64,000 nucleotides of DNA from Candidatus Omnitrophota bacterium (GCA_043821285.1 JBDRCZ010000051.1:2199-66198), one strand, 5' to 3'. Shown: positions 2,161 through 63,717, counted from the stretch's first letter. Made by a program: numbers and translations. The notes: a model not told the origin generated them from the sequence alone.

Positions 2161-2318
2161 GACAATATGGCGGGGCATTTAAAGGAAAATAGCTGAAGAT
2201 CCCGCCTCGCCGACTGTGGGGAAATTATTTGTCAATAATTTTCCCACAGTCGGTGGGATAAATTCCGACGATATAAGTTACCGTGCTTAAGCACGGTAAC
2301 TTATATCGTCATTTAAAG
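2161..2318 (+). repeat. Structured intergenic element, copy A (hairpin units each followed by GGGATAAATTC / TCATTTAAAG boxes)
   Basis: A near-perfect palindrome ccgactgtggggaaatt...aatttcccacagtcgg is followed by gggataaattccgac. A second perfect palindrome gacgatataagttaccgtgctt/aagcacggtaacttatatcgtc is followed by atttaaag. The same architecture occurs at 17207, 19526, 22121 and 27053. Confidence 0.7.
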
Positions 2319-2412
2319 TTTGAAAACCGCAGGTTTTCATATGACAACCTGAACGAGCCAGAAAAACCCTGATGATGTTTGGTTCAGGCTCGTGTAGGTT
2401 GAGGAGGACAAA

Positions 2413-4035
2413 ATGAAGTTTTTTCGAAAAATGATATTTTTTTGGCAGCAGAGCTGGGTAATTATTGTGGTAATTACGGTAATTACCGGGTTGATTACCT
2501 GGGCAGTAATTGGCTTAACGTCTTTGGAGTCTTTTTACCGGAATCAAATATTGGCGACAATGCCGGTCTGGATGCTTATTGGGATATTCCAGGGGATTGC
2601 ATTTGTTACGATGTATTGGTTTATCTTGTATGGCGGATTTACAAAGATTACTTCAAAAAAGATTAAGGCAAGAGACATTAATATTCGGTTTGATGATGTG
2701 ATTGGAATTGAGCAGGCAAAAACAGAGGCTTGGGAAATGGTTGAGCTGATTAAGGACCGGGCAAAGCTTAAAAAGATTGGCGGTAAAATTCTGCGCGGGA
2801 TACTTATGGTTGGCCCCCCCGGATGCGGTAAAACTTATCTGGCAAAAGCTATCTCTACCGAAGCAAAAGTGCCTTTTTTAGCCATGGCCTCTAGTGAGTT
2901 TAATGAGGTTTTTGTTGGCGTGGGCGCAAGCAGAATAAGAAAATTATTCCGGCAGGCGCGCATGCTGGCTTATGCCCATGGGGCATGTATTATCTTTATT
3001 GACGAATTAGACGCGATTGGCCGGTCAAGAACTTTTAGTTTTTTAGGCGGAAGTGAAACAAATGCCACCCAGAACCAGCTGCTCGTGGAAATGGATGGTT
3101 TAAAAGAAAAAGATTATAATGTTATTGTTATCGGGGCAACTAATGCTGCAGAAAATGTGCTTGACCTGGCGCTGCTAAGACCCGGGAGATTTGACCGGAA
3201 GATTTATATCCACTTGCCTAATCTTGAAGGCCGGGAAAAATTGTTTCAATACTATTTAAGCAAGGTAAAATATGACCCTTCCATAGATATTGGGCGGCTG
3301 GCGCGTAAAGCCGTGTATAAAAGCCCGGCGGATATTGAAAATATCATCAAAGAAGCCGCGCTTATTGCCACGCGTTATAAGAAAGATATTGTCAGCTATA
3401 AAGAAATAACCGAGGCCATGGAACGTATTGATATGGGAATAAAACATAAGCGTAATCTTACCCCGCAGGAACGGGAGATGGTTGCTTATCACGAATCCGG
3501 ACATTTGTTAGTGCTTTATATATTGCATCCTACAGATGATGTGTTTAAAGCTTCAATTGTTTCAAGAGGCGCGGCTTTGGGAGTAGTGCATCATCAGCCG
3601 CGTGAAGAATTATTTACCTATAGCCGGGAAAGGGTACTCGCAGAAATAAAAGTTGCTTTAGGGGGATATATTGCCGAAAGACTGCAATGTGGGGTAACTT
3701 CTACCGGTGTTTCCAGTGATTTCAAACAAGCCATGCACTGGGCACATGATATGGTATGGATGTATGGTATGGGTATTGGCGGATATGTGGGTGATTATAC
3801 ACTTATCGATAAATCGGAGATTTCGGAAAAAATAAAAGAAAAATTGAATGAGGAAAGTAATCAGATTTTAAGGCAGTGTCTCAAAGAAGTAGAAGAGCTG
3901 TTAGTGCGGGAAAAGACACTGCTTGACCGATTTGCTAAGGAGCTGCTCGCCCGGGATGAGTTGGAATACGATGAAATCGAGGCAATTTTTGCGGAATATG
4001 GTAAAAGCAATATCCGCAGTAAAATTACGGTGTAA
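2413..4035 (+). CDS. FtsH-like membrane AAA+ ATP-dependent zinc metalloprotease (short N-terminal paralog)
   Basis: Two N-terminal TM helices. Walker A GPPGCGKT, Walker B IIFIDELD, second region of homology, and an HESGH zinc motif. Confidence 0.85.
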   Translation: MKFFRKMIFFWQQSWVIIVVITVITGLITWAVIGLTSLESFYRNQILATMPVWMLIGIFQGIAFVTMYWFILYGGFTKITSKKIKARDINIRFDDVIGIEQAKTEAWEMVELIKDRAKLKKIGGKILRGILMVGPPGCGKTYLAKAISTEAKVPFLAMASSEFNEVFVGVGASRIRKLFRQARMLAYAHGACIIFIDELDAIGRSRTFSFLGGSETNATQNQLLVEMDGLKEKDYNVIVIGATNAAENVLDLALLRPGRFDRKIYIHLPNLEGREKLFQYYLSKVKYDPSIDIGRLARKAVYKSPADIENIIKEAALIATRYKKDIVSYKEITEAMERIDMGIKHKRNLTPQEREMVAYHESGHLLVLYILHPTDDVFKASIVSRGAALGVVHHQPREELFTYSRERVLAEIKVALGGYIAERLQCGVTSTGVSSDFKQAMHWAHDMVWMYGMGIGGYVGDYTLIDKSEISEKIKEKLNEESNQILRQCLKEVEELLVREKTLLDRFAKELLARDELEYDEIEAIFAEYGKSNIRSKITV

Positions 4036-4081
4036 AAAATCGCACCAGGGGTCTCCACTGCGTATACCGGGGGGGAGATTT

Positions 4082-5344
4082 GTGCAAATAGCCGCGATAA
4101 TTATTGTTTTATCATTTTGTAAATGCGCGCCAGGGCCGACCTATCATCAAGATAAGATTGCCGAATCAATAAAAGAAATTTGCCGGAAAGAATACAATAT
4201 CAATGTGTGCGCAAAAATTATTGGTAAAACGATTGGCGTGTATATTCCCTTAGAGAGATTATTTGACGAAAACTTAAATATTGACCAGCAAATTTCGCAA
4301 AAAATCGATGATGTGATTTTAGGCACATCAAGAGTATTGCTCAGTTCCGATACCGAGCTTGATTTTTATCAGGTGGTTGCCGCGGATACGGCACAAATCG
4401 CCGCTGAACTGGTGATGATCCGTTATATTCCAGACATTAAAAAAATTTATTGCGGCAGTATCTCCCGCGATGAATATACCAAACGCATGCTCTGGGAGGT
4501 AAAGATAAATACCCAGATACTCGCGCGCAAAAGGGTGGAAGAATTGTTTCATATGATGCCGACGGGGAATAGTGATAAGATTATTGCGGATTTTTTTGTA
4601 CGAAAACCAAAAGTTAGTCTGGAGGCGATGATTTTTTTCCGGACGCTCAAAGAGTTAGCGATGAAAAAAAACATTGAATATAAGATTTTGAAAATTAAAT
4701 CGAGAGCAATTGATAAAAATAAAATACTGGTTTATTGCCGCGTATTTGAGGACTATACGCCAAAAACAGGATTTATGGATTATGATTTTTTGTCCCCGCG
4801 GCAATTTTATAACGAATATCTATCATTAGTCATGATAAACAGAGGCGCGGCGACAATTGACCAGATTTATTCCCTTTATCATCGAAGCGAAGGCCGTCAG
4901 ATTCGCCGCTTCCCGGACCAGTATATTACCATGAATAATATCGATGAATGGCTGGAGACAGATTTTGTTTTTTCCGATATGACCACCGGAGATTTTTTGG
5001 CGAAACAGATTTTGAAAAGAATAAAGGATGATTTAATCGAAAATTTTGAAGTTAGTTTTTTACAGGGATATTTTGATCAGGAGAAAAAGAACTTCATTTT
5101 TTTATTAAGCGCAAAAAGTAAAAAACCGGATCTTTTGTTTGGGGAAACCGGGATTAACCATGTTATCGATTTAATTAGTAATTTGTTATATAGTTATGAG
5201 TTTTCGGATTACCAGACGCTCTATCTAACGGATATTTCGGAAAATAAGGAATTAGTCATCAGCCGGGAAGATTTGGAACAGAGGGAATTAGATAAAATGA
5301 ATGTGATAAGGAAATTTTTTATAAAAAAAGGGAAAAAAAGATGA
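4082..5344 (+). CDS. Hypothetical lipoprotein-like protein (GTG start proposed at 4082)
   Basis: The ORF-track start at 3923 overlaps ftsH. A GGGGGAGA RBS precedes GTG 4082, which is followed by the hydrophobic IAAIIIVLSFCKC signal with a lipobox-like Cys. No recognisable domain. Confidence 0.5.
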   Translation: MQIAAIIIVLSFCKCAPGPTYHQDKIAESIKEICRKEYNINVCAKIIGKTIGVYIPLERLFDENLNIDQQISQKIDDVILGTSRVLLSSDTELDFYQVVAADTAQIAAELVMIRYIPDIKKIYCGSISRDEYTKRMLWEVKINTQILARKRVEELFHMMPTGNSDKIIADFFVRKPKVSLEAMIFFRTLKELAMKKNIEYKILKIKSRAIDKNKILVYCRVFEDYTPKTGFMDYDFLSPRQFYNEYLSLVMINRGAATIDQIYSLYHRSEGRQIRRFPDQYITMNNIDEWLETDFVFSDMTTGDFLAKQILKRIKDDLIENFEVSFLQGYFDQEKKNFIFLLSAKSKKPDLLFGETGINHVIDLISNLLYSYEFSDYQTLYLTDISENKELVISREDLEQRELDKMNVIRKFFIKKGKKR

Positions 5345-6297
5345 TTGTTGAAAAACCAACACGGGACGGATTTGGTGAGGGGCTTTTGGAATTAGGCGAA
5401 ACAAATAAGGATGTGGTAGTATTGACCGCGGATTTATCGGCTTCGGTAAGGGCACAATGGTTTATGGATAAATATCCCCTGCGCAGTTTTAAATTAGGGG
5501 TGGCCGAACAGGACATGATTGGCACGGCCGCGGGGCTTAGCCTTGGAGGCAAAATCCCATTTGCCGGTACATTTGGAGTTTTTGCCAGCGGCCGGGCATG
5601 GGATCAATTAAGGGTTTCGGTATGCTATATGAACCTGAATGTTAATATTGCCGCCAGCCATGGCGGTATTTCTGTAGGTGAAGACGGGGCAACGCATCAG
5701 GCGCTCGAAGATATAACGTTAATGCGTGCCTTACCGAATATGACGGTAGTTGTTCCTTGTGATGCTCTGGAGGCAAAAAAGGCAACTATTGCCAGTGCAA
5801 GTTATCCCGGACCGGTATATTTACGGCTGGGGAAACAAAAGGTTCCTTTTATGACTTCACCAGAGGCAATTTTTAACATTGGTAAGGCAGATATATTGCG
5901 GACGGGAAAGGATATAACAATTTTTGCCTGTGGTCTTATGGTCGCTGAAGCATTGAAAGCAGGGGAGTTATTGACCAAGAAAGGCATTGATGCGCGGATT
6001 ATTAATATGCATACCATAAGCCCGATAGATATTCAGGCGATAATCGATGCGGCTCAAGAAACCCGGGCCATTGTTACCATAGAAGAGCATAGTTTAACCG
6101 GAGGACTCGGGTCGGCGGTTGCCGAGGTTGTTGTCGAAAGGTGCCCGGTACCGATGAAAATGATTGGTATTCGATCGCAATTTGGCCAATCCGGCAAGCC
6201 GCTGGTTTTACTAAAAGAGTACGGCTTAACCGCCGAGGACATAAAAAATACGATCATTGGTTTTTTAGAGACGGTTAAACCGAATTATTCCCTGTAG
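5341..6297 (+). CDS. tktA_C: Transketolase, C-terminal (pyrimidine-binding) subunit
   Basis: Pyr and C-terminal transketolase domains (GLSLGGKIPF..., EDGATHQ, HTISPID). Its stop-start overlaps the upstream gene. Confidence 0.85.
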   Translation: MIVEKPTRDGFGEGLLELGETNKDVVVLTADLSASVRAQWFMDKYPLRSFKLGVAEQDMIGTAAGLSLGGKIPFAGTFGVFASGRAWDQLRVSVCYMNLNVNIAASHGGISVGEDGATHQALEDITLMRALPNMTVVVPCDALEAKKATIASASYPGPVYLRLGKQKVPFMTSPEAIFNIGKADILRTGKDITIFACGLMVAEALKAGELLTKKGIDARIINMHTISPIDIQAIIDAAQETRAIVTIEEHSLTGGLGSAVAEVVVERCPVPMKMIGIRSQFGQSGKPLVLLKEYGLTAEDIKNTIIGFLETVKPNYSL

Positions 6298-6317
6298 CAA
6301 ACTAGTGCACTGTGACA

Positions 6318-6941
6318 TTAATTTTTGATATTATCATAGAATATAGAGAATTTCTCACGAGCCTTGTTCTTTGTAAACTGCCAAGAGATTGTAATCTTTT
6401 TTTGGTTCCGTTGTTTTGTCCAAGGATAAACTTCATCGGCTAATTTTTTTATGTTTGCGATACGCCGGTCAAGACACTGCTTTGATAGCGCCGACAACTC
6501 AATCTCGGCCATATTCAGCCAGCTGGCTTTCTTGGGAGTATAGGCCATTTCAAAGCGTTGCGATAACACAAAGGTCTCAGGCGCGTCAAAAAGTTCGTAA
6601 AACGAAGAAGGATTATGCGTGTTAAGATTATCCTGAACCAAAATAATCTTATCGGCATCGGGATAATGTGACGCTACATCTTTCATAAAATCAGCATAAT
6701 CTTTCTTAGTCTTGCGTTCTGTGACTTTAACAATACGCTTACCGGCTAAAGGTTCAACAGCCATAAGCACAGCACATGTTCCGTTGCGCTCATAATGATA
6801 GTCCTGACGCTCAACGCATCCTGTTTTCATGGGAATTGGCATCATAACATCACCCAACAACTGACAGGGGCGTTCGTCAAAACAGACAACTGGCCTTTTC
6901 GGATTATAAGGTTGTTCATAAATGTCCAAAACCTGCTCCAT
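6318..6941 (-). pseudogene. IS630 transposase, C-terminal DDE fragment
   Basis: DDE_3-like motifs. It lacks its own N-terminal DNA-binding domain. Confidence 0.7.
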
Positions 6942-7120
6942 CCGCCAGAGATAATCGGCGGTGATGGTTGTAACACACCATTGTTTCTTTAGGTGAGGCT
7001 TAAGTTCGTTTTTTTAAAGTTCTCTCAATGGTTTTATAAGAAATGTTATTAACAAAATTTAACTTGGAATTCTCCGCCCCTTGGGGCGTGGAATGGCGAA
7101 GTTATAAAAAAAGTTCCTTA

Positions 7121-7558
7121 TTATCGGCGAAGCGTAGCGAAGTCGACGTGATGCCCCGCTCCCTTGGGGCGGGGAGAGTTCATTTCAACGACTTTATCGG
7201 CTAAAAGACGCAGACTCCACCTGCAGTGTTCTTGGGGAGCTTTTGAACATGCCAGGGCTGTAATCTGTGCCAGTTGCTTACCGCTGAACTTATTGGGGGC
7301 GCCAGGCCGAGGCTGTTCATATATTGCTGCATTAATTCCTTCTTTTGTATATCGCTGGCGTACTTGGCGAACGGTATTTCGGACTAATCCCAGCGCTTTG
7401 ATGATTCCGCTGTCAGTTTCGCCCTTATCCGCTAACAGTAATATTCGGCACCGAGTTAATGTGCGTGCTTTTTCTTTACCTTTTACCAAAGACCATGAGC
7501 TAGGCTTAAGGGAACAGAGCAATCTTTCAGCAGTCCCTTGAAGGTGTAGAAGACCCAA
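7121..7558 (-). pseudogene. IS630 transposase, N-terminal HTH fragment
   Basis: Transposase HTH_Tnp_IS630-like segment (LLLADKGETDSGIIKALGLVRNTVRQVRQRYTKEG). Confidence 0.65.
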
Positions 7559-7991
7559 GACTTCTTCTTACCATCTTTGCTCGTGGAGGTAAAAACCCAA
7601 CACTTATGCGGATAATGTTTTTTGATGAGTTTCACCAGCTCATCCTGCTGGCTCCAGCAGTGTTTCCGCTTTAGCGGATGGTAAAAGAAGATGTTACGAT
7701 TGGACTTTAATTCACCAATGAAGGGCAGTTTTTTATGGGAGAGAACAAACTTAAGGAATTCAGAGGACTGAGCATACTAGGCACCAATGACCAGGGAAGA
7801 GAATTTTATTTTTCTATGTAAGGCATTATCGACTAATATTCGGGCAAGATCGAGCTTACTTTTAAAATCTACATCCTCTTTGCCAAATAAGAACTCCTCT
7901 GCGGGGAGATAAGATTTAAAGTTTATCGGGAAGCGTTTGGTTTTGGAGGCGAAGGCAGAGAAGACAGCAACATTACAGATTTCTTCACGAT

Positions 7992-8363
7992 TTAAGACAC
8001 CACAGTGTTGACGTTTAGCGCCGGCGTAGCTTTAGCAAAAGGCTTAGGAGAAGAAGTATCATCGATAACTAAGACGCCGGAGGAAGTAGCAGAAGTAGTT
8101 CTTTGATGTTCAATAATTTTTAACCTTATATTGTTAAGATCATTGCTACTCCATTTTGCTTCAGATAAGAAGTACTGACAAGCATGATAGTTGATTGGGG
8201 TTTTAGAGGCGAGGGCATAAAGGGAATTTCTCTTGTAGTCTTTAAACAAAGCATAGATAAGGAAGGAGAAAACGATAAATTGTTTTTTTGAGAAGGCAGG
8301 TTTAAAACGAAATAAGAAATTATTGATTACCGAAATAGTGAGATTAAAAATACCCATATCCAC
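7992..8363 (-). pseudogene. IS701/IS4-like transposase, N-terminal fragment; the remainder is decayed
   Basis: The N-terminal motif ACQYFLSEAKWSSNDLN resembles the IS701-family HxFLS(D/E)SPW box. No intact downstream DDE ORF lies between 7560 and 7990. Confidence 0.5.
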
Positions 8364-8913: not shown

Positions 8914-9157
8914 TTGCTTTTTTTAAGAACAAATCAGATAAATTGCATGTATTAATTACTACGGCGTATTAATAAAACTGTTTCAATACACAATACACAA
9001 TACTCAATACAATCTTCTAAACGACACGGCGGGCAGGCGATACAAAAAAATAAAATAAAATTATCACACAGAGGCACAGGGCACACGGAGAAAAACGTTT
9101 GAACTACGTATTGCGGATTTTGTGTAAAAACAGATAAGAAGAGAATAAAAGGAAAAA

Positions 9158-11540: not shown

Positions 11541-12325
11541 TAGAAAACTCAATAAAAAGATTAATATCTATCGGAAAAACTCCTGGGATTAGAGTAACTC
11601 TTACTGATCATAACCAGAATAGGATTGTAGAATCCATAGATTACTTAAAAAAGTTAGGAATACGTTCAGCTGCCTTTATTCCGATGGAAATACCTTTTTA
11701 TTTAGAAGACAATATAGCTCAGCTGGCAACGGATCCTGAGATAGTATATAATGAATATATTAGGGCTTATGAATATACATACAGATTATATTGTAATGAG
11801 GGGTATGCCTTCCATCTTTTGCCGATAACCATGATTTTAGAAGGAGTGATGTCCGGAGGAAGGTTTCAAGGTTGTGGGATGGGAAGAGGTTTTTTTTCGA
11901 TAGGTACTAGTGGAAATATACATTCATGTCAAAGAGTGAGAACAGATGAATTTTATATAGGAAATATATACGATAATGATATTTTTTATAAACTTGATAA
12001 TGTGCCGGAAAGTAAAAAAGGAAATAGCGTTTTGTCAGCATTGCTTAGTGAACGAACTACTGATGTAAAAGGCAATTCTTGTGCTAATTGTGAAGTTTTA
12101 GCGTTTTGTGCGGGAGGTTGTGCTGCCGCTGCCTGGGCGCAGTTTAAAGATAAGGACATAGGGTCCCCTAATATTAATGACTCGATGTACCATGAAAAAT
12201 GTTATTATACAAAGAAATTGATAAAAAGGCTTTTTTGGGATTATATTGAACGTCCAAAGAAAGATGACAAATATTTCAAATATCTTTCAACTATTGCGCC
12301 AATAAGACGAAATTTTTGGATGTAA
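11507..12325 (+). pseudogene. Radical SAM / SPASM-domain maturase, 5'-truncated (no CxxxCxxC cluster motif)
   Basis: Complete SPASM/twitch signature CGMGRGFFSIGTSGNIHSC ... CANCEVLAFCAGGC ... HEKC. The upstream rSAM-barrel-like segment is present but the N-terminal ~100 aa with the SAM-cluster cysteines is absent. The frame is closed by a stop at 11495. Confidence 0.6.
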
Positions 12326-12465: not shown

Positions 12466-12560
12466 ATGGATAAAAAAAATTCCGGTGCTGCGGAGCAGTA
12501 TTAGCTTGGCATAATGCTCTGTAGCCTTGCTGGAGAATGGTCAAACTGCAGAAAATTATT
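12466..12560 (+). repeat. ~95-bp intergenic repeat family (GGATAAAAAATTCCGGTGCTGC...CTGTAGnCTTGCT...GGTCAA)
   Basis: Near-identical copy at 21906-22000 and a partial copy at 63648-63708. Confidence 0.7.
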
Positions 12561-12583
12561 TATTTGGTATTATTTAACAAGTT

Positions 12584-13438
12584 ATGAAAAGTATTCGCTT
12601 GCTTGCCCCGGCAAAGATAAATTTGTATTTAGATATAGTTGGCCGCCGCCGGGATGGCTATCATAATATTTTAACTTTTTTGCATAAAATTAATTTAGCA
12701 GATACGATTGAACTAAAGCCGCGGCAGCAGAAGATTGTGGTGAAATGTAGTCATGCACATGTGCCCAGTGGCCGGACAAATCTTGTGTATAAAGCCGCGA
12801 GGATGCTTCAGCAGAAGACGTGTACAAATTTTGGTGCGGAGATTAAAATAATAAAAAGGATTCCTCCAGCCAGTGGGTTAGCAGGAGGTTCCAGTGATGC
12901 GGCAAGTGTGCTTTTAGGGTTAAACCGGTTATGGAAGCTAAAGATTCCGGCAAAAACGCTTGAACTCTGGGCAGCAGAGATTGGTGCAGATGTTCCATTT
13001 TTTGTTAGCAGATATAATTCAGCTATTGCTCGCGGCATTGGAGATAAACTTCGGCCGATAGACACCACGGCAAAATACTGGGTTGTCCTGGCAGTTCCGC
13101 ATAGAAGGATTTCTACAAAAAAAATTTACCGTCTGTTAAAACAAATCTTGACAAAGAGACCGGGTAATGTTAAACTAATCATTCACGCCTTCAAGCATAA
13201 AGACTTAGAAACGTTATCGGTCTATTTGTATAATGCATTGGAACATATAACACTTAAGCGGTGTAAAGAGACCGGGAAGATTAAGTCGCTGTTTAGTCTT
13301 TTAGGTTGTAAGGTAGCACTTATGTCCGGCAGCGGCCCAACAGTATTTACACTAACAACATCAAGGGGGGAGGCGAGGAGAATAGCACAGAGCACGAGTT
13401 CAGAGAAGTGCGAGACATTTGTCGTAAGAAGCTTGTAG
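12584..13438 (+). CDS. ispE: 4-diphosphocytidyl-2-C-methyl-D-erythritol kinase
   Basis: N-terminal LLAPAKINLYLDIVGRRRDGYH and the GHMP kinase motif PPASGLAGGSSDAA. Confidence 0.9.
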   Translation: MKSIRLLAPAKINLYLDIVGRRRDGYHNILTFLHKINLADTIELKPRQQKIVVKCSHAHVPSGRTNLVYKAARMLQQKTCTNFGAEIKIIKRIPPASGLAGGSSDAASVLLGLNRLWKLKIPAKTLELWAAEIGADVPFFVSRYNSAIARGIGDKLRPIDTTAKYWVVLAVPHRRISTKKIYRLLKQILTKRPGNVKLIIHAFKHKDLETLSVYLYNALEHITLKRCKETGKIKSLFSLLGCKVALMSGSGPTVFTLTTSRGEARRIAQSTSSEKCETFVVRSL

Positions 13439-14587: not shown

Positions 14588-14716
14588 ATGCCTTTCATGT
14601 TCGAAAACCTTGAAGTTTATCAGAAAGCAATCGGAAATCTTACAGAAAGGTTTACAAAAGGCAATTATTATCTTATATGTGAGAATAAGATAGCAGGTAA
14701 AGCGAAGGAATTATGA
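14588..14716 (+). pseudogene. Four-helix-bundle (23S rRNA IVS) family protein, truncated to 42 aa
   Basis: MPFMFENLEVYQKAIGNLTERF matches the family N-terminus. It stops after 42 codons, and its TGA overlaps the ATG of the methyltransferase (ATGA). Confidence 0.45.
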
Positions 14717-15855: not shown

Positions 15856-15858
15856 TAG

Positions 15859-17013: not shown

Positions 17014-17206
17014 GATTGGTTGATAATTAGGTTGATGGTTTTAACCCCGTGGTTTACCTAAATATAAATATCCCTTTGCCACGGTTGACTATAATTTTAT
17101 GACTAATTGGCAACATTGATTCTTTGATTTTCGGTTGATGACAACTTTCTTTCTTTTGGTTCTACCTTTTCTTTTTAAGAAAAGGTAGAGCAAAATATCC
17201 GCCTAA

Positions 17207-17279: not shown

Positions 17280-17314
17280 TAGATGGCAAAATTAGTGCCG
17301 AAGGCAATAATTTT

Positions 17315-19525: not shown

Positions 19526-19647
19526 ATCCCACCTCGCAGATCGTGAGGAAATTCTTGATTAATAATTTCCTCCACGCTCGGTGGGATAAATTCGCACACA
19601 TAAGTAATGTCGCTTTACAGCGGCATAACTTATGTGCTCATTTAAAC
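19526..19647 (+). repeat. Structured intergenic element, copy C (upstream of rplY)
   Basis: Outer stem atcccacc...ggtgggat, then aaattcgcac, then the hairpin gcacacataagtaatg.../...cataacttatgtgc, then tcatttaaac. Confidence 0.7.
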
Positions 19648-19686
19648 TTTGAAAACCGTAGATTTTTAAATGACCCGCCAAAAGAC

Positions 19687-21405: not shown

Positions 21406-21834
21406 TTGGCAAGTCTTAATAAGGTGTTTTTGATTGGTAACCTGACCCGTGATCCGGAACTGCGTTATGTTCCGAGTGGTACCGCGGTCACAACGTTTTC
21501 TATAGCCGTAAACCGTGTATTTACACAACAGAACGGAGAACGTAAAGAAGATGTGTGTTTTATCCGGATCGTTGCATGGGGAAAGCTGGCGCAAAGCTGT
21601 GGTGAATATTTAAATAAAGGAAGTTCTGTTTTTATTGAAGGACGGCTGCAAAACCGCAGCTGGGAAGCAGGAGACGGTACGAAACGTTCAACAATGGAAG
21701 TTATTGCCCAGCGGGTACAATTTCTCGATCGGGTAAAACAAACCTCCACGGGAAGCAATGCGGAGATGGCCATGGATGAAGACACAGAACCAATGGAACC
21801 AGTATCTGCTCCTGATGAGACTGTGCCATTTTAA
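21406..21834 (+). CDS. ssb: Single-stranded DNA-binding protein
   Basis: OB-fold N-terminus NKVFLIGNLTRDPELRY, and an acidic C-terminal tail ending DETVPF. Confidence 0.9.
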   Translation: MASLNKVFLIGNLTRDPELRYVPSGTAVTTFSIAVNRVFTQQNGERKEDVCFIRIVAWGKLAQSCGEYLNKGSSVFIEGRLQNRSWEAGDGTKRSTMEVIAQRVQFLDRVKQTSTGSNAEMAMDEDTEPMEPVSAPDETVPF

Positions 21835-21866
21835 ACTTGATTATTCCCTATAGCTTGATAGAGGGT
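21831..21866 (+). terminator. Repeat-family terminator-like element (TTAAACTTGATTATTCCC plus hairpin)
   Basis: ttaaacttgattattccc followed by ccctatagcttgatagaggg. Paralogs at 40711 and 47401 have the same conserved flank with different, compensating hairpin sequences. Confidence 0.55.
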
Positions 21867-21881
21867 GATCTTTTGGATGGA

Positions 21882-21909
21882 AAGTTTGAAAACCTACGGT
21901 TTTCAAATG
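21882..21909 (+). repeat. Palindromic unit AAGTTTGAAAACC-N3-GGTTTTCAAATG
   Basis: Other copies at 2316-2342, 40788-40815 and 45760-45788, and a degenerate copy at 19645-19675. Confidence 0.7.
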
Positions 21910-22000
21910 GATAAAAAATTTCCGGTGCTGCATTGCCTCATCAGCTTGGCAAAATACCCTGTAGTCTTGCTACAGGGATGGTCAAGCTGAAGGAAATTTT
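21906..22000 (+). repeat. ~95-bp intergenic repeat family, copy 2
   Basis: Matches 12466-12560. Contains the hairpin ccctgtagtcttgctacaggg. Confidence 0.7.
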
Positions 22001-22120
22001 TTATTTATTATTTTTACTGCGCAAAAATAAGCATTTATAAGCAAAGCGGATAAAAAAAGACGAAGCGCAAATATTAAATACCCCGCCAAAATACCGAAGA
22101 TCCGCCGAAGTATTAGTGGT

Positions 22121-27189: not shown

Positions 27190-27672
27190 GTGATGAAGAG
27201 ATTAGTAGTTTTTACCGTAGTGTGTGTGTTGGTATTGACAGGGTCGGCTTATGCCGCAGATAAATTTGTTTGTGTTGATATTGCTAAAATATTTGATGAG
27301 TATAACAAAACTAAAGACTTAGATGAACAATTACAGAACAAGAAAACAGACCGTGATAATTTAATCAATGAAATGAAAACACTTAACGAAGGTATGGATT
27401 TGTTAAGTGATAAGGCTAAACAGGAGCGCCAGCAGCAGATTGCCGATAAAGAAAAAGAGCTGCGTCAACTAAGTGAAGATTTATTACGTGAACGTGATGA
27501 ACTGGCGCGTAAAATATTAGAAGAAATACAGTCAGTTATTGAGGAACAGAGTAAAAAAAATGGATATGTATTTGTATTTAATGATCGTCTGCTACTTTAT
27601 AAAGATAAAAAACTTGATATCACAGATGATATTATTAAAATCTTAAATACCGGCTATAAAAAAGGTAAATAA
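27190..27672 (+). CDS. skp: Periplasmic chaperone Skp (OmpH family)
   Basis: Signal peptide, then a long coiled-coil region. Located between bamA and lpxD as in many diderms. Confidence 0.75.
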   Translation: MMKRLVVFTVVCVLVLTGSAYAADKFVCVDIAKIFDEYNKTKDLDEQLQNKKTDRDNLINEMKTLNEGMDLLSDKAKQERQQQIADKEKELRQLSEDLLRERDELARKILEEIQSVIEEQSKKNGYVFVFNDRLLLYKDKKLDITDDIIKILNTGYKKGK

Positions 27673-27707
27673 ATCTTCCCCGCAGCAAGAGACGGGGTAT
27701 TTTCATA

Positions 27708-27733
27708 CACGGAAAATGCAAGCATTTTCCACG
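27708..27733 (+). repeat. 23-nt palindrome family CGGAAAATGC-N3-GCATTTTCCG
   Basis: Copies at 27708, 40172, 45619 and 55116. Each follows a terminator-like hairpin. Confidence 0.7.
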
Positions 27734-31931: not shown

Positions 31932-32711
31932 ATGACAAATATCAAAAGACAAAAGCCAGGATTTATATTAAAAAAAATAAAGGAGCAGAGAGTGGAAAAG
32001 ATTAAAGAGAATATTATAAACTGGATAAAACAACAGGTTGTTCAGGCAAAGGCGCGGGGTGTTGTCTTGGGATTAAGCGGCGGGGTAGACTCTGCGGTTT
32101 GTGCGGCTTTGGTTAAAGATGTCTGTGAAAAAAATCACCAGGCATTAATCTTACCGTGTGAGAGTATAGAAAATGATATTAAAGATGCAAAACTTGTTGC
32201 GGATGTTTTAAAGCTTAATATGCAGCTAATGGATTTAACCGCGGTATATACTAAACTGTTGGAAATTTTGCCAAAGGGTAATCTGGTTGCGCAAGGCAAT
32301 CTTAAGGCCAGGCTGCGGATGACGACCCTGTATTATTTTGCCAACAGCCGCAATTTTTTAGTCTGCGGTACAGGAAATCGAACAGAACTATTGCTGGGGT
32401 ATTTTACGAAATACGGTGATGGCGGAGCGGATATTTTACCAATTGGTGACTTATTCAAGCATGAAGTTCGGCAGTTGGCAGAGAGCGTTGGTATCCCAAA
32501 AAAGATAATTAAAAAGAGACCAAGTGCCGGACTTTGGCCGGGACAGACCGATGAGCAAGAATTGGGATTAAGCTATAGAGAGCTGGATGATATTTTAAGT
32601 AATCTTTATCACCCAAAACATATCTCCAAAAAATTTAAAAAGGTTAAGGGGTTAATAGATAAATCATTACATAAAAGGCAGGGAGCAAAAATATTTTATT
32701 GTAAAGAGTGA
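31932..32711 (+). CDS. nadE: NH3-dependent NAD+ synthetase
   Basis: PP-loop SGGVDS motif. Length and surrounding conservation fit. Confidence 0.8.
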   Translation: MTNIKRQKPGFILKKIKEQRVEKIKENIINWIKQQVVQAKARGVVLGLSGGVDSAVCAALVKDVCEKNHQALILPCESIENDIKDAKLVADVLKLNMQLMDLTAVYTKLLEILPKGNLVAQGNLKARLRMTTLYYFANSRNFLVCGTGNRTELLLGYFTKYGDGGADILPIGDLFKHEVRQLAESVGIPKKIIKKRPSAGLWPGQTDEQELGLSYRELDDILSNLYHPKHISKKFKKVKGLIDKSLHKRQGAKIFYCKE

Positions 32712-32905
32712 ATAAATCTTCCCCTCCGCTTGCCGAGGGGAAAATTTATTATAATTTTTTTTATTGACAACAATCATATTATATGTTACGCTCGAAAATG
32801 GGAAATAATGTTTAACCATCTAAACTTAAAGGGCTTAAATTATAAACTAAAAATATTTTAAAAAGAAATTAAATGCCTGCGTTATAGAGAAAAAATGAGG
32901 AAGAG

Positions 32906-40710: not shown

Positions 40711-40845
40711 TTAAACTTAATTATTCCCGGCAGCTAGAGGGTAAAAAGGTTTTGGTTCTTTCTTATCTGGGTTGTAAGAAGTGATGTAAAGTTTGAAAAC
40801 CGTAGGTTTTTAAATGGATAAAAAGATTCCAAAGGAATTTTTTTA

Positions 40846-42064: not shown

Positions 42065-43036
42065 TCATGTCGGATACGACTTAGGCCTATCCGTGTATAA
42101 ATTCCCCCTCTGCTTGCGGGAGGGGGAATTTATTTTTCTGGTGATTTTCAGGGCAATCTTTAATGCCTCTAAGGCTTCACGGCCCGAGACCATTGGCGGT
42201 TTTTTTGTTTTTATCGAATTAATAAAAGACAAAAGCTCGGCTTTTAGGGGATTTTCTTTTTTTATATTTAGTTTTTGTTTATAGATCATATGATTAATTT
42301 TTCGATAGATTACTGCCTGCTGGCTGACATAATCAAGTGAGATATATGCGTCTTGGGTAAATATTCTAATTTTGCGCATTGTTTCCTGGGTCAGGCGGCT
42401 GGCGGTGAGGTTACAGATAGTGTTGTTTTCAAAGACCACCCGGGCATTAGCAATGTCTTCCTGATTAGTCAGTACGTTTACGCCCACGGCTGCGATATTT
42501 TTAATCCTTGATTTTATCAACCCGAGGATAATATCAATATCATGGATCATTAAATCCAGCACCACGCCAATATCTTTTACCCGCGGGTCAAAAGGGCCGA
42601 GGCGGTGACATTCAATAAAGCGCGGGGCAGAGATCATTGATTGGACTGCCTGAAAGGCCGAATTGAACCGTTCGATATGTCCGACCTGCAGGATGCACCC
42701 ATTTCGCTGGGCAAGAGCAAGCAGTGCGGCGGCATGGGTTACGGTTTTTGTAATCGGTTTTTCTACCAGCACATGTATTTTTCGGCGCAGGAATTCTTTG
42801 GCAATTTTATAATGCCAGATTGTCGGTACGGCAATGCTTACTGCATCCACCTTCTCAAACATCTGAGTAAAATTAAGGAAGGGGGTGCAATTTGTTTCGC
42901 GGGCGGCCTTTTTTGCCTTTTGCGGCAAGATATCACATACCCCGGTAAGGTTAACCGCCGGGATATGTTTATAATTGTGGGCATGAAAATATCCCACCCG
43001 TCCAACACCAATAACACCGACTTTTATTTTTTTCAT
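42065..43036 (-). CDS. Gfo/Idh/MocA-family NAD(P)-dependent oxidoreductase
   Basis: Rossmann N-terminus KIKVGVIGVGRVGYFHAHNY. ATG at 43036 is preferred over the ORF-track start at 43144. Its 3' end reads through a terminator-family repeat at 42095-42131. Confidence 0.75.
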   Translation of the reverse strand: MKKIKVGVIGVGRVGYFHAHNYKHIPAVNLTGVCDILPQKAKKAARETNCTPFLNFTQMFEKVDAVSIAVPTIWHYKIAKEFLRRKIHVLVEKPITKTVTHAAALLALAQRNGCILQVGHIERFNSAFQAVQSMISAPRFIECHRLGPFDPRVKDIGVVLDLMIHDIDIILGLIKSRIKNIAAVGVNVLTNQEDIANARVVFENNTICNLTASRLTQETMRKIRIFTQDAYISLDYVSQQAVIYRKINHMIYKQKLNIKKENPLKAELLSFINSIKTKKPPMVSGREALEALKIALKITRKINSPSRKQRGNLYTDRPKSYPT

Positions 43037-45583: not shown

Positions 45584-45879
45584 AATTCTCCGCAGCAAAC
45601 TGCGGAGAATTTTATAATCGGAAAATGCTGTGCATTTTCCGGAAATTTGAATAACGCAGGAAAAGCACCATTGGATTTAGCAATTATGTGTTTTGAATAC
45701 TACAACGAAACATTGTATCAAAGAAAGGAAACGATAGATAAATAAATCAACCAAAGGGAAAGTTTGAACACGAAAGGTTTTCAAATGACAAGCTGAACGA
45801 GCGAATAACATCTAAGTATTAATAAATTACTCGTCCGGTACCCCAGATCTGGTTGATTATAGTTCGTTTAGCTTATACA

Positions 45880-47400: not shown

Positions 47401-47437
47401 TTAAACTTGATTATTCCCTGCAGCTTGCTGCGGGGAA
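47401..47437 (+). terminator. Repeat-family terminator-like element (TTAAACTTGATTATTCCC plus hairpin)
   Basis: ttaaacttgattattccctgcagcttgctgcgggg. Confidence 0.55.
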
Positions 47438-47522
47438 GATTCAGTAAAATAAAAATTTTCGTCAGCTTAAATTGTTTCGTGCTTTGTGATGAGGAGTTAG
47501 AGTTTATGCTGCTGGGGATTTA

Positions 47523-50591: not shown

Positions 50592-50921
50592 CGGAATTTG
50601 CCTTTTTATTAGTTTATTTTTTCTTTATTCTAACAGAATTAATTATTTTGTGAAAGTAAAATGTGTGTAGATGCTAAGAGCCATAGTTTGTGCCTTTATT
50701 TTTTCAATCTCCCGCAAAGTTGCCGGAATGCCAAGCTGCTCATCACATCCGCCCAGGCGGATGACCGGAAAATGATTGCATTTTCCGTGTATGAAACAAT
50801 CTCGCAGCAAGCTGCAGGGTGGTTTCATTCGGCAGACAGGTATATTTTTCATTGTGTATAATTGACTTGCCATTTATCGCAACTTTGGTTAACATATTAA
50901 AGAAAGGCGCACAGAGGCAAA

Positions 50922-54825: not shown

Positions 54826-54967
54826 GCTTTTATTTTAATTCAAATAAAGAAAATAGTCAAATATTACTTAGCTTTTTAATAAAAATCTTGAAAAAATCAT
54901 GGGGTTTTATTATAATATTTATTATAAGGGCATTGATATTTTGGCCGGCTCATGAGGAGGTGGAAAT

Positions 54968-55036
54968 ATGGGGTGTGGGACTTGCAGACCAAAGAAGAAA
55001 GCAAAGAAAAAAGCTGCTAAAAAGAAAAAGAGATAA
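54968..55036 (+). CDS. Small 22-aa poly-Lys peptide with a CxxC motif (MGCGTCRPKKKAKKKAAKKKKR), not in the ORF track
   Basis: A perfect GGAGGTGGAAAT-ATG RBS, an in-frame TGA just upstream, and a TAA stop. Lies immediately upstream of the ABC transporter genes. Confidence 0.4.
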   Translation: MGCGTCRPKKKAKKKAAKKKKR

Positions 55037-55180
55037 CATAAACCATTAACTTAATTCTCTATGGTCTTGTCGCAGATCCGCGGTGGCGGAGCTGAAACTA
55101 ATTTCGCTTCACGGTCGGAAAATGCAGTGCATTTTCCGAACATGAAGATACCCTGTCTCAAGAGACGGGGGAGATGCATT

Positions 55181-57506: not shown

Positions 57507-58440
57507 TGAAAAGTTTAAAAACAATTATTCCTCATTATTTTTTAGCTACGGATTTACACGGATGGAACACGGATTTTTAATAATTAATTCATTTTTTGAC
57601 CCGTTTACCCTATTTTATACCCTCCCCGGATTTAATCAAAAGATTTTTTCTAAAAAAGATTGGGATAGGTTTAACATTGCAACGCTAATAGGGCAAGCGG
57701 TATAAGGTATTTAAGGATTCATTTTATTTTTAACAACAAATATCACCAATTACACGAATATGGTAAGTATCTTTTATTTGTGATGTTTGTGTGATTTGTT
57801 GTTTAAAAAAAAATTATTTTTTATGCTCTAATGTAAAGCTCAGCAATACGTTGTAAATTTTTTTATTCTCACACAGAGCCACAGCGCTCACAGAGTTTTT
57901 TTTAATTTCTGACCAGCTGGTACAGACTTTTCTGCGTATTGATTATTGTTTTAAATATTATCGGAAAGATATTTAAATTTTTTCTCATCCTTGGGATATT
58001 CGCAGCCTTGATTGTTTGGTTGATGATTAAATTTAATCTTATCAGTTTTTGAACCTAAGACATAAGACAGAAATTTTTGATTTTTATTAATCCCCCGCCA
58101 AGCCACAAAGCTTACAAGAAAAATTTATGTAGATAATTTTTTGTTCCCCGCCCAAAAAAATATTTTTGTTTTGAATTTAGTTTATGTTTAGAGTAAAATA
58201 TATGCTGTATATCGTATGTCGTGAGGCTTGTTGTTAAGCGGGTACCGTTTGTCGGTACAGAGAGTGGATAGAAATATACAACGGGACTTTGTCTCAAGGT
58301 CTGTGATCATCCCTGCCTGTGGCAGGCAGGAGTATCTTTCAATCTGCGATCATGAGGAAAAAGAAGAGAAAGAGTTGTTTCCGCTTGTAAAGAAATATGA
58401 GGTTGAGTTAGAATAATATGGCGGCCAGTAGTGATTAGAT

Positions 58441-59223: not shown

Positions 59224-59396
59224 TATAACTTCGTATTGAGTATTGCGTATCGAGTATTAAGCATAAAAAGACGATAATAAAAAACGCAATACTCACGACG
59301 CAATACACAATACAGAAAATTACGTTACTGTAACCGATACCAAAATGCTGAAGAACTACTCTATCGGCAGGCATTTGGCAAGGAGCGGATGTAGGC

Positions 59397-61775: not shown

Positions 61776-62291
61776 ATGAAATTTAGTAAAGGACTTACAT
61801 TCTTAGAGATTATTATCGCCCTGTCACTGTTTACGATTGCCTTACTTGGCATTTTTCAAATGTTTAATATGGCTTTGAATGCCGGATACCGGGCAACGCA
61901 GGAAACTATTGCCACAAACCTTGCCCGCGGACTGATGAACGAAATAATGAGTAAGAATTTTGAAGACCCCATGGAGCCTGGCACGGATATTGGCCCAAAT
62001 ACCGAAGAAATTACCCGTAGTCACTTTGATGATGTAGATGATTATCATGGATTAACGGAGTCACCTCCGGTCACAGTCGGGGGAGCAGACATGGATGGAA
62101 CCGGGGAGCCCCCTTTACCTGATTATTCAGATTTTACCCGTAACGTTACCGTTGTTTATTGTAACATCGATGGGGCGAATAATATTGTAGTAAGTGGTAG
62201 TCCTACTAATTATAAACAGATCAAAGTGACGGTCAGCGGTCCGTATACCCGGGATATTCTTATAGATGCCGTTAAGGCAAGAGTGCCTTAG
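61776..62291 (+). CDS. Pseudopilin / minor pilin-like protein
   Basis: MKFSKGLTFLEIIIALSLF, i.e. the G-(F/L)-T-(F/L)-(L/I)-E N-terminal methylation motif. Confidence 0.7.
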   Translation: MKFSKGLTFLEIIIALSLFTIALLGIFQMFNMALNAGYRATQETIATNLARGLMNEIMSKNFEDPMEPGTDIGPNTEEITRSHFDDVDDYHGLTESPPVTVGGADMDGTGEPPLPDYSDFTRNVTVVYCNIDGANNIVVSGSPTNYKQIKVTVSGPYTRDILIDAVKARVP

Positions 62292-62322
62292 AGGAAATTT
62301 TTTATTTGAAGGAACAGGTTTT

Positions 62323-63543
62323 ATGTTGTTGATCCCAATATTAGCCTTAGGGATTATTGCCATGGTAATTCTTGCGGCGGTATTATTAAGGAAGAATATT
62401 AATTTAAATAAAAAGTCGCAGGTATTGGAAAAAGAAATTGCCATCCAGAGCGATAAACTAAGTTACCAGAAAAAAACCTACTCGGAAGCAGCAAATTATT
62501 TTTATTCGACCATGGTAATCATTATCGAGATTATCCGGGAAATAGAAAGTGTACTGAGGTCCGAAGAGGGGGATTTGTCCGAGAAGGTGTTGCAGATCAT
62601 TTTTGAAAAGGTAAAGACCATCCTTGATCCTCAAAAATGTGTGCTGTTTACGATAAATAATGCTAACCATACTTCAGCTTGTCTTTATGCGTTTGGCTAT
62701 GATCAAGAGAAATTAGACAGCCTGAATCCTTCCATTGATGCGGACAATAGTTTTTTAGGCTGGACCGCGGTTACCGGCAGGTTTCTTTCCATATCCGATG
62801 CAAAACACGATTCGGTTTTGCGCCACCTAATTGATACTGACCCCATTGGCTGTCATTATGCCCAGCCGTTTAAGGTACAGAATAAAGTCAGAGCGGTTCT
62901 TTGCGTGGGAGAAATTAAGCAAAACATGCAGGATGATTTTATATTACGGCTGTTTTCGATATTATCGAACATTACCGCAATATCATTAAATAATGCCTCA
63001 CTCACGCAGCAATTAAGGGAATTATCCGTAAAAGACGGACTAACCGGAGTGTATAATCATAGTTATTTTCAGAAGTGGCTTAAAAACGCCCTCGCAGAGT
63101 TAAATGGGAAAAATACAACCCTTTCTTTGGCGATGGTCGATTTAGATAATTTTAAAACGATAAATGATACTTATGGACATCAGACGGGAGATCTTATGTT
63201 GCAAGCCGTAACTAGTGCGTTGAATAGTATAAAAACCCCGGATTATATTTGTGCCCGATATGGCGGGGATGAATTTGTTTTAGGGTTTAAGAATAAGGAT
63301 ATTAATCAAACACAGGCAATTATGACCAGGGTTAGAGAAAAAATCGCACAGGAACTATTTTCATTGCAAAATAATGGGATTAGCGTTACCATAAGTATCG
63401 GCGTTGCCGAAGCACGGTTTTCGGAAAATAAAAAAATAAATAAAACAGATCTGATTAAATCAGTAGATCAGGCATTGTATCAGGCAAAGGCTGCCGGGAG
63501 AAATACAGTGGTGATCGCAGATATTAGTTCGTATTGTGTATAA
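62323..63543 (+). CDS. GGDEF-domain diguanylate cyclase with N-terminal TM and GAF-like region
   Basis: GGDEF motif RYGGDEFVL. An inhibitory-site-like RxxD is not obvious. One TM helix near the N-terminus. Confidence 0.8.
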   Translation: MLLIPILALGIIAMVILAAVLLRKNINLNKKSQVLEKEIAIQSDKLSYQKKTYSEAANYFYSTMVIIIEIIREIESVLRSEEGDLSEKVLQIIFEKVKTILDPQKCVLFTINNANHTSACLYAFGYDQEKLDSLNPSIDADNSFLGWTAVTGRFLSISDAKHDSVLRHLIDTDPIGCHYAQPFKVQNKVRAVLCVGEIKQNMQDDFILRLFSILSNITAISLNNASLTQQLRELSVKDGLTGVYNHSYFQKWLKNALAELNGKNTTLSLAMVDLDNFKTINDTYGHQTGDLMLQAVTSALNSIKTPDYICARYGGDEFVLGFKNKDINQTQAIMTRVREKIAQELFSLQNNGISVTISIGVAEARFSENKKINKTDLIKSVDQALYQAKAAGRNTVVIADISSYCV

Positions 63544-63717
63544 GAAAGCAGAAGGCGGAAGACAGACGGCAGAAAAGATGACGAATGACGAAACAAAAAA
63601 CAACAATACATAAAAAATTTCTTACTGTTGCTAAATAGTAACATTTTAGAGCAATACCTCTGTAGTCTTACTACAAAAGTAGTCAAGAAGAGAGAAATTT
63701 TTTTATAAGGAGTAAAC

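Follow-up and report, generated by a model that had tools for sequence, protein, structure and literature searches.

The window analyzed here is a stretch of 64,000 nucleotides from Candidatus Omnitrophota bacterium (GCA_043821285.1 JBDRCZ010000051.1:2199-66198), in which an initial annotation had recognized five recurring intergenic modules: a palindrome (module a), a hairpin unit (b), a unit of about 95 bp (c), a family of terminator-like hairpins (d) and a 23-nt palindrome (e). We propose, with a probability of about 0.72, that these modules represent insertion sequences (IS) of the IS200 group (IS200/IS605 family, with a Y1 HUH transposase), either as their ends or as miniature copies with internal deletions. 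The assignment of b, a and c to IS200-type ends appears very probable from sequence comparisons: b followed by a would be the IS200 left end, and c a truncated transposase start followed by a right-end-like hairpin. The segment 21831-22006 is most plausibly a single miniature IS200, and 40711-40843 another that has lost more of its sequence. This kind of element is already known, in the form of non-autonomous IS200/IS605 derivatives and of repeats like the repetitive extragenic palindromic sequences and bacterial interspersed mosaic elements (REP/BIME), and the window elements are a fresh member.

If true, the proposal turns five motifs into one story, in which the ends of single-strand transposons have gathered at the stop codons of a once-compact genome. 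It would explain why the copies are uniformly oriented and placed at stop codons, why target duplications are missing and why 3' ends of genes are altered, and it would add Omnitrophota to the hosts of miniature elements derived from IS200, another member of the phylum (locus L132) having an unrelated second example.

Transposase-linked relatives of modules a, b and c

A scan with module a alone against 185,579 species-representative genomes yielded eight loci. In three of them, one in a gammaproteobacterial metagenome-assembled genome (MAG; locus L001) and two in flavobacteria (L006 and L007), strong similarity extends beyond the searched pattern: a is preceded by 'ATTCCCC + variable hairpin + GGG' and then '(T)AAAG..GGAAAG', which is the b-a arrangement of the window at 21831-21909. 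The next gene after a in L007 (a Flavobacterium MAG) and in L001 encodes an IS200-like Y1 transposase, TnpA (PF01797, E = 1.4e-38 and 8.5e-36, respectively). A 664-nt Flavobacteriales contig (L005) starts inside the upstream segment and has tnpA after a, with a TnpA 90% identical to that of L007 by tblastn; in L006 the upstream segment and a are present and the contig ends inside the left end. The true left ends of L001, L137, L003 and L135 consist of a first hairpin, then TTTAAAG, then a.

Element boundaries were taken from TnpA homologues 78-80% identical to the L001 TnpA query (P0137 from Legionella, P0170 from metagenomes), which occur at 15 places; six or more of these are separate insertion sites, differing in the flanking sequence on either side. 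With a caret marking the junction between target and element, the left end of the Legionella-type IS200 is TTN^AACTAGTATTCCCCGCGGCTTGCCGCGG...TTAATAGGAAAG TTTGAAAACC ATA GGTTTTCGAAT...ATG (tnpA), with the core GGAAAG-TTTGAAAACC-ATA-GGTTTTC..ATG, and its right end is ...GATACCCCGTGGCTTGCCACGGGGAGGTTCATT^ (closing in ATACCCCGTGGCTTGCCACGGGGAGGTTCATT^). Module b in the window has the form TTA^AAC-TTGATTATTCCC-hairpin (GCTTG loop)..GGAAAG-a. Since the junction falls at the matching position, the TTAAAC of b straddles the boundary between target and element. Left ends of the IS200 family lie 3' of a specific tetra- or pentanucleotide that is not duplicated; correspondingly, TTA^AAC is found in four of four b copies and TTN^AAC at the six or more sites of the relatives.

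A profile (nhmmer) built from the transposase-linked left ends only matched all five window copies of a, with E = 1.1e-7 (21877-21908), 4.8e-6 (the unit at 2255), 3.4e-5 (the remnant at 45753), 3.6e-5 and 0.047 (the unit at 19583). Weak matches to its first-hairpin part fall on b and d copies (within the d and d-e group, at 32716 and 45578 only). Sequence resembling the start of tnpA, ATGACA.C.T.AACGAGC.AG, follows a at 2340 (ATGACAACCTGAACGAGCCAG) and 45784 (ATGACAAGCTGAACGAGCG) and aligns with the tnpA start of L145 (ATGACACTCAAACGAGCAAG, M-T-L-K-R-A-S) and of L001, in an alignment that also contains L140.

Module c begins with ATGGATAAAAAATTTCCGGTG and keeps TTTCCGGTG, to be compared with TTTCCGGTA, which encodes F-P-V in the conserved HxVFxxKYR region of the L001 transposase. 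It also holds AATACC-CTGTAG-TCTTG-CTACAG-GGATGGTCAAG, an 'ATACC-hairpin-GG' layout as in the right ends of L001, L007, L137 and L140. The L137 contig, from IMG/VR, has portal and F-like genes of the Mu type; it also contains an independent element of 125 nt that lacks a transposase and is made up of a left end, AAAATTTTTTCCGTTG and a right end. On the + strand of the window, 21831-22006 combines the left-end hairpin of b with the AATACC-hairpin of c, in alignment with the ends of these four loci, and thus shows the subterminal hairpins on the same strand and the absence of terminal inverted repeats that characterize IS200/IS605 ends. The 40711-40843 element was likewise aligned with IS200 left ends and with the 125-nt element of L137. 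An Rfam match to STnc490 at 21885-21993 covers the whole model and stays below threshold (26.4 bits against a gathering score of 56, local E = 0.0016). STnc490/art200 is antisense to the 5' untranslated region (UTR) in the IS200 left end (PMC4513863), and the match points to IS200 relatedness in a supportive capacity only.

Compared with IS200-group elements (the Legionella P0137 element and the IS200 of Salmonella and E. coli), the window elements are alike in the left terminus with its first hairpin (ATTCCC-hairpin, GCTTG loop), in the second stem-loop ahead of the transposase start (TTTGAAAACC-N3-GGTTTTC), in the right end, in insertion 3' of a short target without duplication, and in having all structures on one strand. 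They differ in having no transposase gene, in being mostly solo left ends or internal deletions, and in hairpin stem sequences unlike those of every autonomous copy retrieved; for the d-e units, the retrieved data hold no autonomous counterpart. The closest non-autonomous IS200/IS605 derivatives are presumably the PATE-type miniature inverted-repeat transposable elements (MITEs). These and the 125-nt phage-contig copy resemble the window elements in their joined ends, deleted transposase, length of 125-180 nt and intergenic location, whereas the window elements are chained with other end fragments and lie inside essential operons.

Distribution of the copies and the d-e units

All five modules were recovered where the initial annotation had placed them or within one base, far above shuffle expectation. 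Module a lies at 2316, 19645 (three mismatches), 21882, 40789 (given before as 40788) and 45760, always on the + strand, and had no match in 100 shuffles (0/100). Module b was confirmed at 21831, 40711 and 47401, starting at -4, 0 and 36 nt relative to the stop codon; a fourth, degenerate copy at 6275, within the last codons of tktC, had not been listed. The two c copies at 12466 and 21906 are 79.6% identical over 103 nt, the partial copy reported near 63648 extends over 63610-63703, and a 32-nt 'mini' form consisting of the outer stem alone was added at 40812-40843. The five d hairpins (27668, 32711, 40130, 42095 and 45585) stand and are joined by a sixth on the minus strand (50793-50828), but the supposedly common loop cgcttgcg is present only at 32711, 40130 and 42095, that is, in three of the five, with GCAAGAG at 27668 and GCAAAC at 45585. 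Two copies of module e are exact (45619 and 55116), a third differs by one mismatch (40172), and the one at 27710 (previously 27708) is degenerate and has a shorter loop; the initial annotation lacked a fifth, at 50766-50787, whose spacer is shorter by 1 nt. The rule that e always lies just 3' of d holds at 27710, 40172, 45619 and 50766 (reversed) but not at 55116, where there is no d hairpin. As for the loops of the b and d hairpins, they are either CTTG or its complement CAAG (CAAA) when 27668, 45585 and 42095 are set against 32711, 40130, 47401 and 50793, with flank orientation unchanged, and the loop appears flipped inside a fixed stem.

The preference for sites after stop codons was borne out: every one of the 24 listed copies is intergenic (~14% of the window) or on the 3' end of a gene, the hairpin at 42095 indeed overlapping the oxidoreductase open reading frame (ORF), and six of the ten b/d hairpin units start at -5 to +2 nt relative to a stop codon. 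On the G-rich + strand lie 21 of the 24 copies, gene orientation being confounded with replication direction in the window. Target-site duplications, suggested earlier as a sign of mobility, are not to be seen, as no direct repeats flank the copies, and the mark of insertion is instead the conserved TTA trinucleotide 5' of the left end. Because the IS200-type family makes no duplications, that check is uninformative.

Spacers between conserved genes have grown at the sites of the modules. The order tktN-tktC-ispE-spoVG-tRNA-glmU-prs-rplY-pth-rpsF-ssb-rpsR-rplI-dnaB-bamA-ompH-lpxD is a conserved block according to Pfam annotation and three syntenic Omnitrophota loci (L130, L132 and L133). The prs-rplY spacer is 196 nt long in the window compared to 12 nt in L133 (12-56 nt in the relatives), ssb-rpsR 412 nt compared to 23 nt (9-23 nt in L130 and L133), bamA-ompH 408 nt compared to 44 nt, and ompH-lpxD 205 nt compared to 9 nt. 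The spacers of L130 and L132 are similar to those of L133, which puts the relatives overall at 2-60 nt against 196-412 nt in the window, and none of the modules occurs at the orthologous spacer positions in these three relatives. On this comparison the modules are lineage-specific additions and not conserved signals. The nearest other L25 proteins are 51-54% identical to that of the window, and no close relative is at hand for a presence/absence comparison.

Table 1. Proposed IS200-type end fragments and miniature elements in the window, with the modules that compose them.
Position	Strand	Feature	Parts	Context
21831..22006	+	Putative miniature transposase-less IS200-type element	b as left terminus and first hairpin (21831-21868); a as second left-end stem-loop (21882-21909); c as remnant and right-end-like hairpin (21906-22006)	Between ssb and rpsR
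40711..40843	+	Second, more deleted putative mini element	b 40711-40745; a 40789-40816; mini-c, outer stem alone, 40812-40843	Begins 0 nt past stop codon of pilin gene
2255..2360	+	Putative left-end unit	GGGATAAATTC; 20-bp hairpin 2267-2310; ATTTAAAG; a 2316-2343; ATGACAACCTGAACGAGCCAG, resembling first IS200 tnpA codons	Upstream of FtsH-like gene that, with ORF 3923-5344, splits tktN from tktC
19583..19672	+	Putative left-end unit, same build as 2255..2360	GGGATAAATTC; hairpin 19594-19637; TCATTTA; degenerate a 19645-19672	Between prs and rplY
45753..45805	+	Putative decayed left-end remnant	GGGAAAG; degenerate a 45760-45787; tnpA-start-like ATGACAAGCTGAACGAGCG	
6275..6298	+	Solo b	Putative left terminus and half hairpin	Last 7 codons and stop of tktC; adjoins IS630-family transposase gene
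47401..47441	+	Solo b	Putative left terminus TTAAACTTGATTATTCCC; perfect 10-bp hairpin with CTTG loop; fold z = -4.2	
12466..12565	+	Module c copy, decayed structure	Weaker fold, z = -2.1	Upstream of ispE
63610..63703	+	Partial diverged module c copy	78% identity over 51 nt	
27668..27730	+	d-e unit	Hairpin, then TTTCATACA, then e palindrome	Hairpin overlaps ompH stop codon
40130..40194	+	d-e unit	-23.4 kcal/mol as DNA, z = -8.6	Begins 2 nt past stop of type II secretion system F (T2SS-F) gene
45585..45641	+	d-e unit	-27.4 kcal/mol, z = -10.6	Begins 1 nt past stop of ParA/MinD-like gene
50766..50828	-	d-e unit, reversed		Between divergent genes, upstream of best promoter-like site of minus-strand gene
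32711..32749	+	Solo d hairpin	T-rich tail	At nadE stop codon; most terminator-like context among d copies
42095..42133	-	d hairpin, then truncated e palindrome	d hairpin; TTTATACACGGA	Last ~23 codons of Gfo/Idh/MocA oxidoreductase ORF
55116..55138	+	Solo e palindrome without d hairpin		3 nt ahead of start codon

Several of these features (Table 1) resemble one another closely. The region of the unit at 2255 is 76% identical to 19526-19674 over 150 nt, with compensatory changes in the stem, and 2315-2358 is 86% identical to the remnant at 45753 over 44 nt; the d-e unit at 27668 is 86% identical to the reverse complement of 50746-50796 over 51 nt. The b copy at 6275 encodes a C-terminus of tktC that is unlike those of the orthologues.

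The b and d hairpins form one sequence family: the b hairpin at 47401 matches d hairpins in reverse complement without mismatch, over 17/17 positions between 47416-47432 and 50803-50819 and over 18/18 between 47424-47441 and 27672-27689. When folded as single-stranded DNA (ssDNA), the d-e units, the b-a units and the true left ends of L140 and L007 take up a common layout, in which a first hairpin, rich in G+C and extended by A/T-rich sequence, is separated by 11-19 nt from a second one with a stem of about 10 bp and a loop of 3 nt. On its left, d is flanked by (T/C)AA^AT(C)TTCCCC, parallel to TTA^AAC..ATTCCC, and it is because of the (T/C)AA^ flank that d-e units abut TAA stop codons. From the layout and the shared first hairpin, we give roughly even odds that d-e is the left end of a second IS200 subfamily. 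The initial picture of five independent, freely combined modules therefore has to be given up, as b+a(+c) form one element and d+e have the same two-hairpin layout with a first hairpin of the b sequence family.

The metagenome scan with e returned at least 120 loci, none of them related to the window by blastn; the matches are chance hits or unrelated repeats, many of them in a different G+C-rich repeat that shares the palindrome. No match to e was found in the viral contigs searched, and in plasmids neither d-e nor b-a-c had a useful match. Two loci in which e matches stand beside GGCTCTGCC hairpins (L092 and L083) were set aside, with no transposase nearby. A separate repeat family in other bacteria is the palindrome CGGAAAATGC-N3-GCATTTTCCG, with CG/CG flanks and followed by CTAGTTTGTCCCATCGCTTCGCTCGGGAGA, which recurs in both orientations in L010, L013, L015, L017, L021, L026 and many other G+C-rich, apparently soil metagenome contigs, often just past a stop codon.

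Related end pieces occur beyond the five modules. The right end of the Legionella-type IS closes in a hairpin + GGTTCATT^, and the 'hairpin + TCATTTAAAG' units of the window, for example 22078-22140 (ATACCCCGCC...GGCGGGTCATTTTAAGG), have this same form; their likeness to the IS left and right ends makes them probable members of this family of ends. L132 contains GGGATTAATTC-hairpin-CTCATTTAAGGAGG-ATG as well as a CACATAAGT hairpin shared with the window in reversed orientation, which argues that end pieces are spread across Omnitrophota.

L132 also has a repeat of its own, about 170 nt long, directly past the TAA stops of ssb and rplI (12030-12225 and 13010-13174). This repeat starts with (T)TTTATCCC and a hairpin and ends with a hairpin + AGCTTCAT, a layout as in IS200 ends, and its insertion at ssb is at the same site as that of the window.

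Proposed mechanism of insertion and competing explanations

The transposase of IS200/IS605 elements works on a single strand of ssDNA, whose subterminal hairpins it recognizes. This strand leaves as a single-stranded circle, and its left end is joined 3' of a specific short target on the lagging-strand template, with which genomic members of the family are oriented (PMC5027513). For the window we infer a transposase acting in trans, encoded elsewhere in the genome or since lost, that would have recognized the hairpins on one strand, excised this strand as a circle and pasted it 3' of TTA (b type) or roughly (T/C)AA (d type) on the lagging-strand template. Modules b and d would correspond to the left terminus and the subterminal hairpin next to it, a and e to the second stem-loop of the left end (found just ahead of the transposase start codon where a copy is autonomous), and c to the stump of the transposase gene with a right-end-type hairpin. 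The adjacency to stop codons would reflect TAA-containing targets in an ancestor with spacers of 2-60 nt, where the stop region would have been almost the sole tolerated target, and chains would arise by repeated insertion beside earlier copies. Single-strand insertion at the lagging strand would thus produce a near-uniform orientation with replication, no target duplications, and starts in or after TAA-type stops. GC skew is positive over the entire length of the window (+0.10 to +0.23, at a G+C content of about 40%), which makes the + strand the lagging-strand template; this strand also carries the majority of the genes.

A number of observations weigh against an IS200 origin. Searches of the 64-kb window by tblastn with two TnpA proteins found nothing significant for a Y1 transposase and no detectable remnant ORF, and Y1_Tnp (PF01797) is absent among the 30 window proteins scanned against Pfam. 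Module c is the top match of the right-end profile, yet with a non-significant E = 2; a right end is favoured for it, but an alignment with the 5'-UTR stem-loop of classical IS200 is also possible, and no right boundary was fixed for the window elements. Module e was not found next to a transposase in the metagenome scan or in the viral and plasmid collections. Orientation with replication is inseparable from orientation with transcription in the window, where most genes are on the + strand. Finally, most units are solo left ends that would be immobile alone, and their multiplicity needs decay after insertion or another copying route.

Among the alternatives, a strict REP/BIME origin survives best and is nonetheless unlikely. 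It holds that short palindromes are kept at high copy number by a single domesticated REP-associated tyrosine transposase (RAYT, TnpA-REP) and are not decayed autonomous IS200 copies. Much in the window agrees with it: the units are mostly hairpins, alone or paired, that lack a right end, they are chained and placed after stop codons inside operons as REPs are, and P0132, a protein of the same TnpA family, bears the JGI label 'REP-associated tyrosine transposase'. Two papers relate REPs to the subterminal hairpins of IS200/IS605 (PMC3333891, PMC8266576), and on that account the analogy to BIMEs drawn in the initial annotation was apt in kind. Like the REP/BIME of enterobacteria and pseudomonads with their RAYTs, the window copies are intergenic hairpins in mosaics that appear related to Y1 substrates, but the units are longer (two hairpins with linkers), no conserved GTAG-like tetranucleotide precedes the hairpins, whose 5' flanks are ATTATTCCC, AATCTTCCCC or AAATTC, and neither inverted doublets nor a RAYT were found in the window. 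REPs in the strict sense are imperfect palindromes of 20-40 nt behind such a tetranucleotide, frequently paired in inversion, with hundreds of copies in a genome and a RAYT gene that has REPs on its flanks. Moreover, b+a matches the left end of a mobile multi-copy IS200 nucleotide for nucleotide, including the tnpA stump, which argues for derivation from an autonomous IS.

A regulatory role raises a different question, namely what the hairpins now do. The left-end hairpin of Salmonella IS200 (nt 12-34) was shown experimentally to be a bidirectional rho-independent terminator that blocks impinging transcription (PMC4513863), and by analogy a terminator or RNA-stability role of the window hairpins is plausible. 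Under the IS200 reading, the copies would probably attenuate read-through or stabilize the 3' ends of upstream mRNAs as a side effect. A consensus terminator scan flags four d copies, at 32719 and 42097 on the + strand and at 27697 and 45615 on the minus strand, and terminator-like sites overall are not above shuffle expectation. The d copies at 40130 and 27668 are followed by only 3-4 T, and no gene ends at the d-e unit 50766-50828 that could be terminated there. It is rather improbable that Omnitrophota have co-opted IS200 end fragments as standard operon punctuation, with the first hairpin setting 3' ends at stop codons and a/e, the following hairpin and the TCATTTAAGGAGG right-end junction supplying the leader and ribosome-binding region of the essential genes rplY, rpsR and ompH.

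Quite improbable, too, is that the modules are simply cis-regulatory signals of the host, with b and d as terminators, a and e as palindromes bound by a protein or RNA, and c as a small structured RNA. Their similarity would then come from a shared trans-acting factor, and the likeness to IS200 would be incidental or due to capture. The 21 sense-oriented copies out of 24 and the foot of the hairpins tight against stop codons are consistent with such signals, as are the imperfections in two a stems, which on the sense strand are G-T (G-U) and not A-C. In the same vein, a precedes a hairpin, a ribosome-binding site and the start of a host gene at 2413, at 19708 and in another Omnitrophota MAG (L002/L004), and the c copy at 21906 has a very stable fold (-46.7 kcal/mol, z = -7.5). 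However, the elements are missing from the orthologous spacers of the three other Omnitrophota, one d-e unit lies between divergent promoters, the copies at 42095, 45760 and 12466 are truncated or decayed, and the downstream genes form no evident common regulon. No Rfam family reaches threshold for the modules (in the window only tRNA-Gln does), and three other phyla have this composite in physical linkage with transposase genes.

That the repeats are MITEs of a DDE transposon, for example of the IS630-family element at 6318-7558, or Correia-like elements is hardly credible: an IS630-family transposase gene (DDE_3 and helix-turn-helix (HTH) domains, apparently frameshifted) does stand directly beside the b copy at 6275 and c has an outer inverted repeat (ATAAAAAATTTCC/GGAAATTTTTTAT), but the copies have no flanking TA duplications, c does not share its outer repeat with the IS630 copy, and all other features fit IS200-type ends. 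Correia elements of Neisseria are 100-155 bp long, with terminal inverted repeats of about 26 bp, a TA duplication and a site for integration host factor (IHF). The window elements (b-a-c and the d-e ends) share with them the character of short intergenic repeats able to affect transcription; having no such long terminal repeats, TA duplication or IHF site, and pointing to a different transposase family, they bear out the Correia comparison of the initial annotation poorly.

Other candidates were rejected. The pilin encoded at 40321 has a weak ComP_DUS match, but the half-sites of a and e occur only inside the palindromes and never singly, which speaks against DNA-uptake sequences. Small ORFs starting from the ATG that closes a have reading frames that are not conserved among copies. 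Promoter readings of a (sigma-70, sigma-28, extracytoplasmic function (ECF) sigma and sigma-54) suffer from unfit spacings and -10 regions and are countered by canonical TTGACA/TATAAT promoters elsewhere in the window, and parS, dif and attC are unfit in geometry or consensus, as judged from the nucleotide sequence.

Gene order, annotation and further repeats

The elements carry a warning for annotation. Gene callers over-extend ORFs through them, as in the L25 protein, called with 277 aa instead of about 226, and short-read assembly seems to fragment here, the sole Logan contig retrieved (SRR2544004) being 2.2 kb long.

Longer stretches separate some neighbouring genes of the conserved block. 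In 2161-5344, tktN and tktC are 3.2 kb apart, compared to 2-55 nt in the relatives, and the gap is occupied by the gene of an FtsH-like AAA+/M41 protease (2413-4035) and an ORF without Pfam match (3923-5344). An IS200-type left-end unit is located at its left edge, and AAGGAAATTTTTTAT, the motif that closes module c, is found near its right edge at 5308-5322; this segment may be cargo carried between IS200-type ends. Directly after tktC come the pieces of IS630 (6318-8363), with a minus-strand transposase in two separate parts, HTH (7121-7558) and DDE_3 (6318-6941), and a DDE_5 fragment at 7992-8363. They lie, along with four further ORFs, in a 6.3-kb insertion between tktC and ispE. Between tRNA-Gln and glmU, which are about 50 nt apart in L133, an N6/N4 DNA methyltransferase gene and an adjoining 384-aa ORF without Pfam match (14713-17013) may represent an inserted restriction-modification module.

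A tiny lysine/arginine-rich ORF at 54948-55016 (MGCGTCRPKKKAKKKAAKKKKR) resembles the small basic ORF (MPCGKKRKR...HKKK) that follows hisG in L132 (~1050-1143) and L133 (~2903-2992), and may be a conserved unannotated micro-protein.

Other repeats lie in the intergenic regions. A conserved hairpin, AAATTAGTGCC-GAAG-GCAATAATTT, is located directly before the start codons of glmU, pth and the gene at 30322 (17286-17318, 20387-20426 and 30291-30324); it stands inverted, with a UUCG loop, before rplI (22635-22683) and occurs also in L002 (~6075-6100). Between this hairpin and the ATG there is no Shine-Dalgarno sequence, and AAGGTA lies just upstream. The hairpin may split a ribosome-binding site or serve in translational control. 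In three cases another hairpin, CCTTTTCTTTT..AAAGAAAAGG, stands ahead of it (17145-17188, 22588-22632 and 30243-30287). An 85-nt repeat (26833-26917 and 40211-40295, 79% identical) forms a long hairpin with CACAGAG/CTCTGTG arms upstream of ompH and of the pilin gene, and related CACAGAG-rich stretches are found at 9060-9090 and 57865-57895. A 54-nt repeat (41986-42039 and 57536-57589, 81% identical) contains reiterated CACGGAT/CACAGAT (TTAGCCACGGATTTACACAGAT..CACGAATTTTT), and the heptamer CAATACA/CAATACT forms short arrays in two intergenic regions (8984-9010 and 59233-59314), which match partially in reversed orientation.

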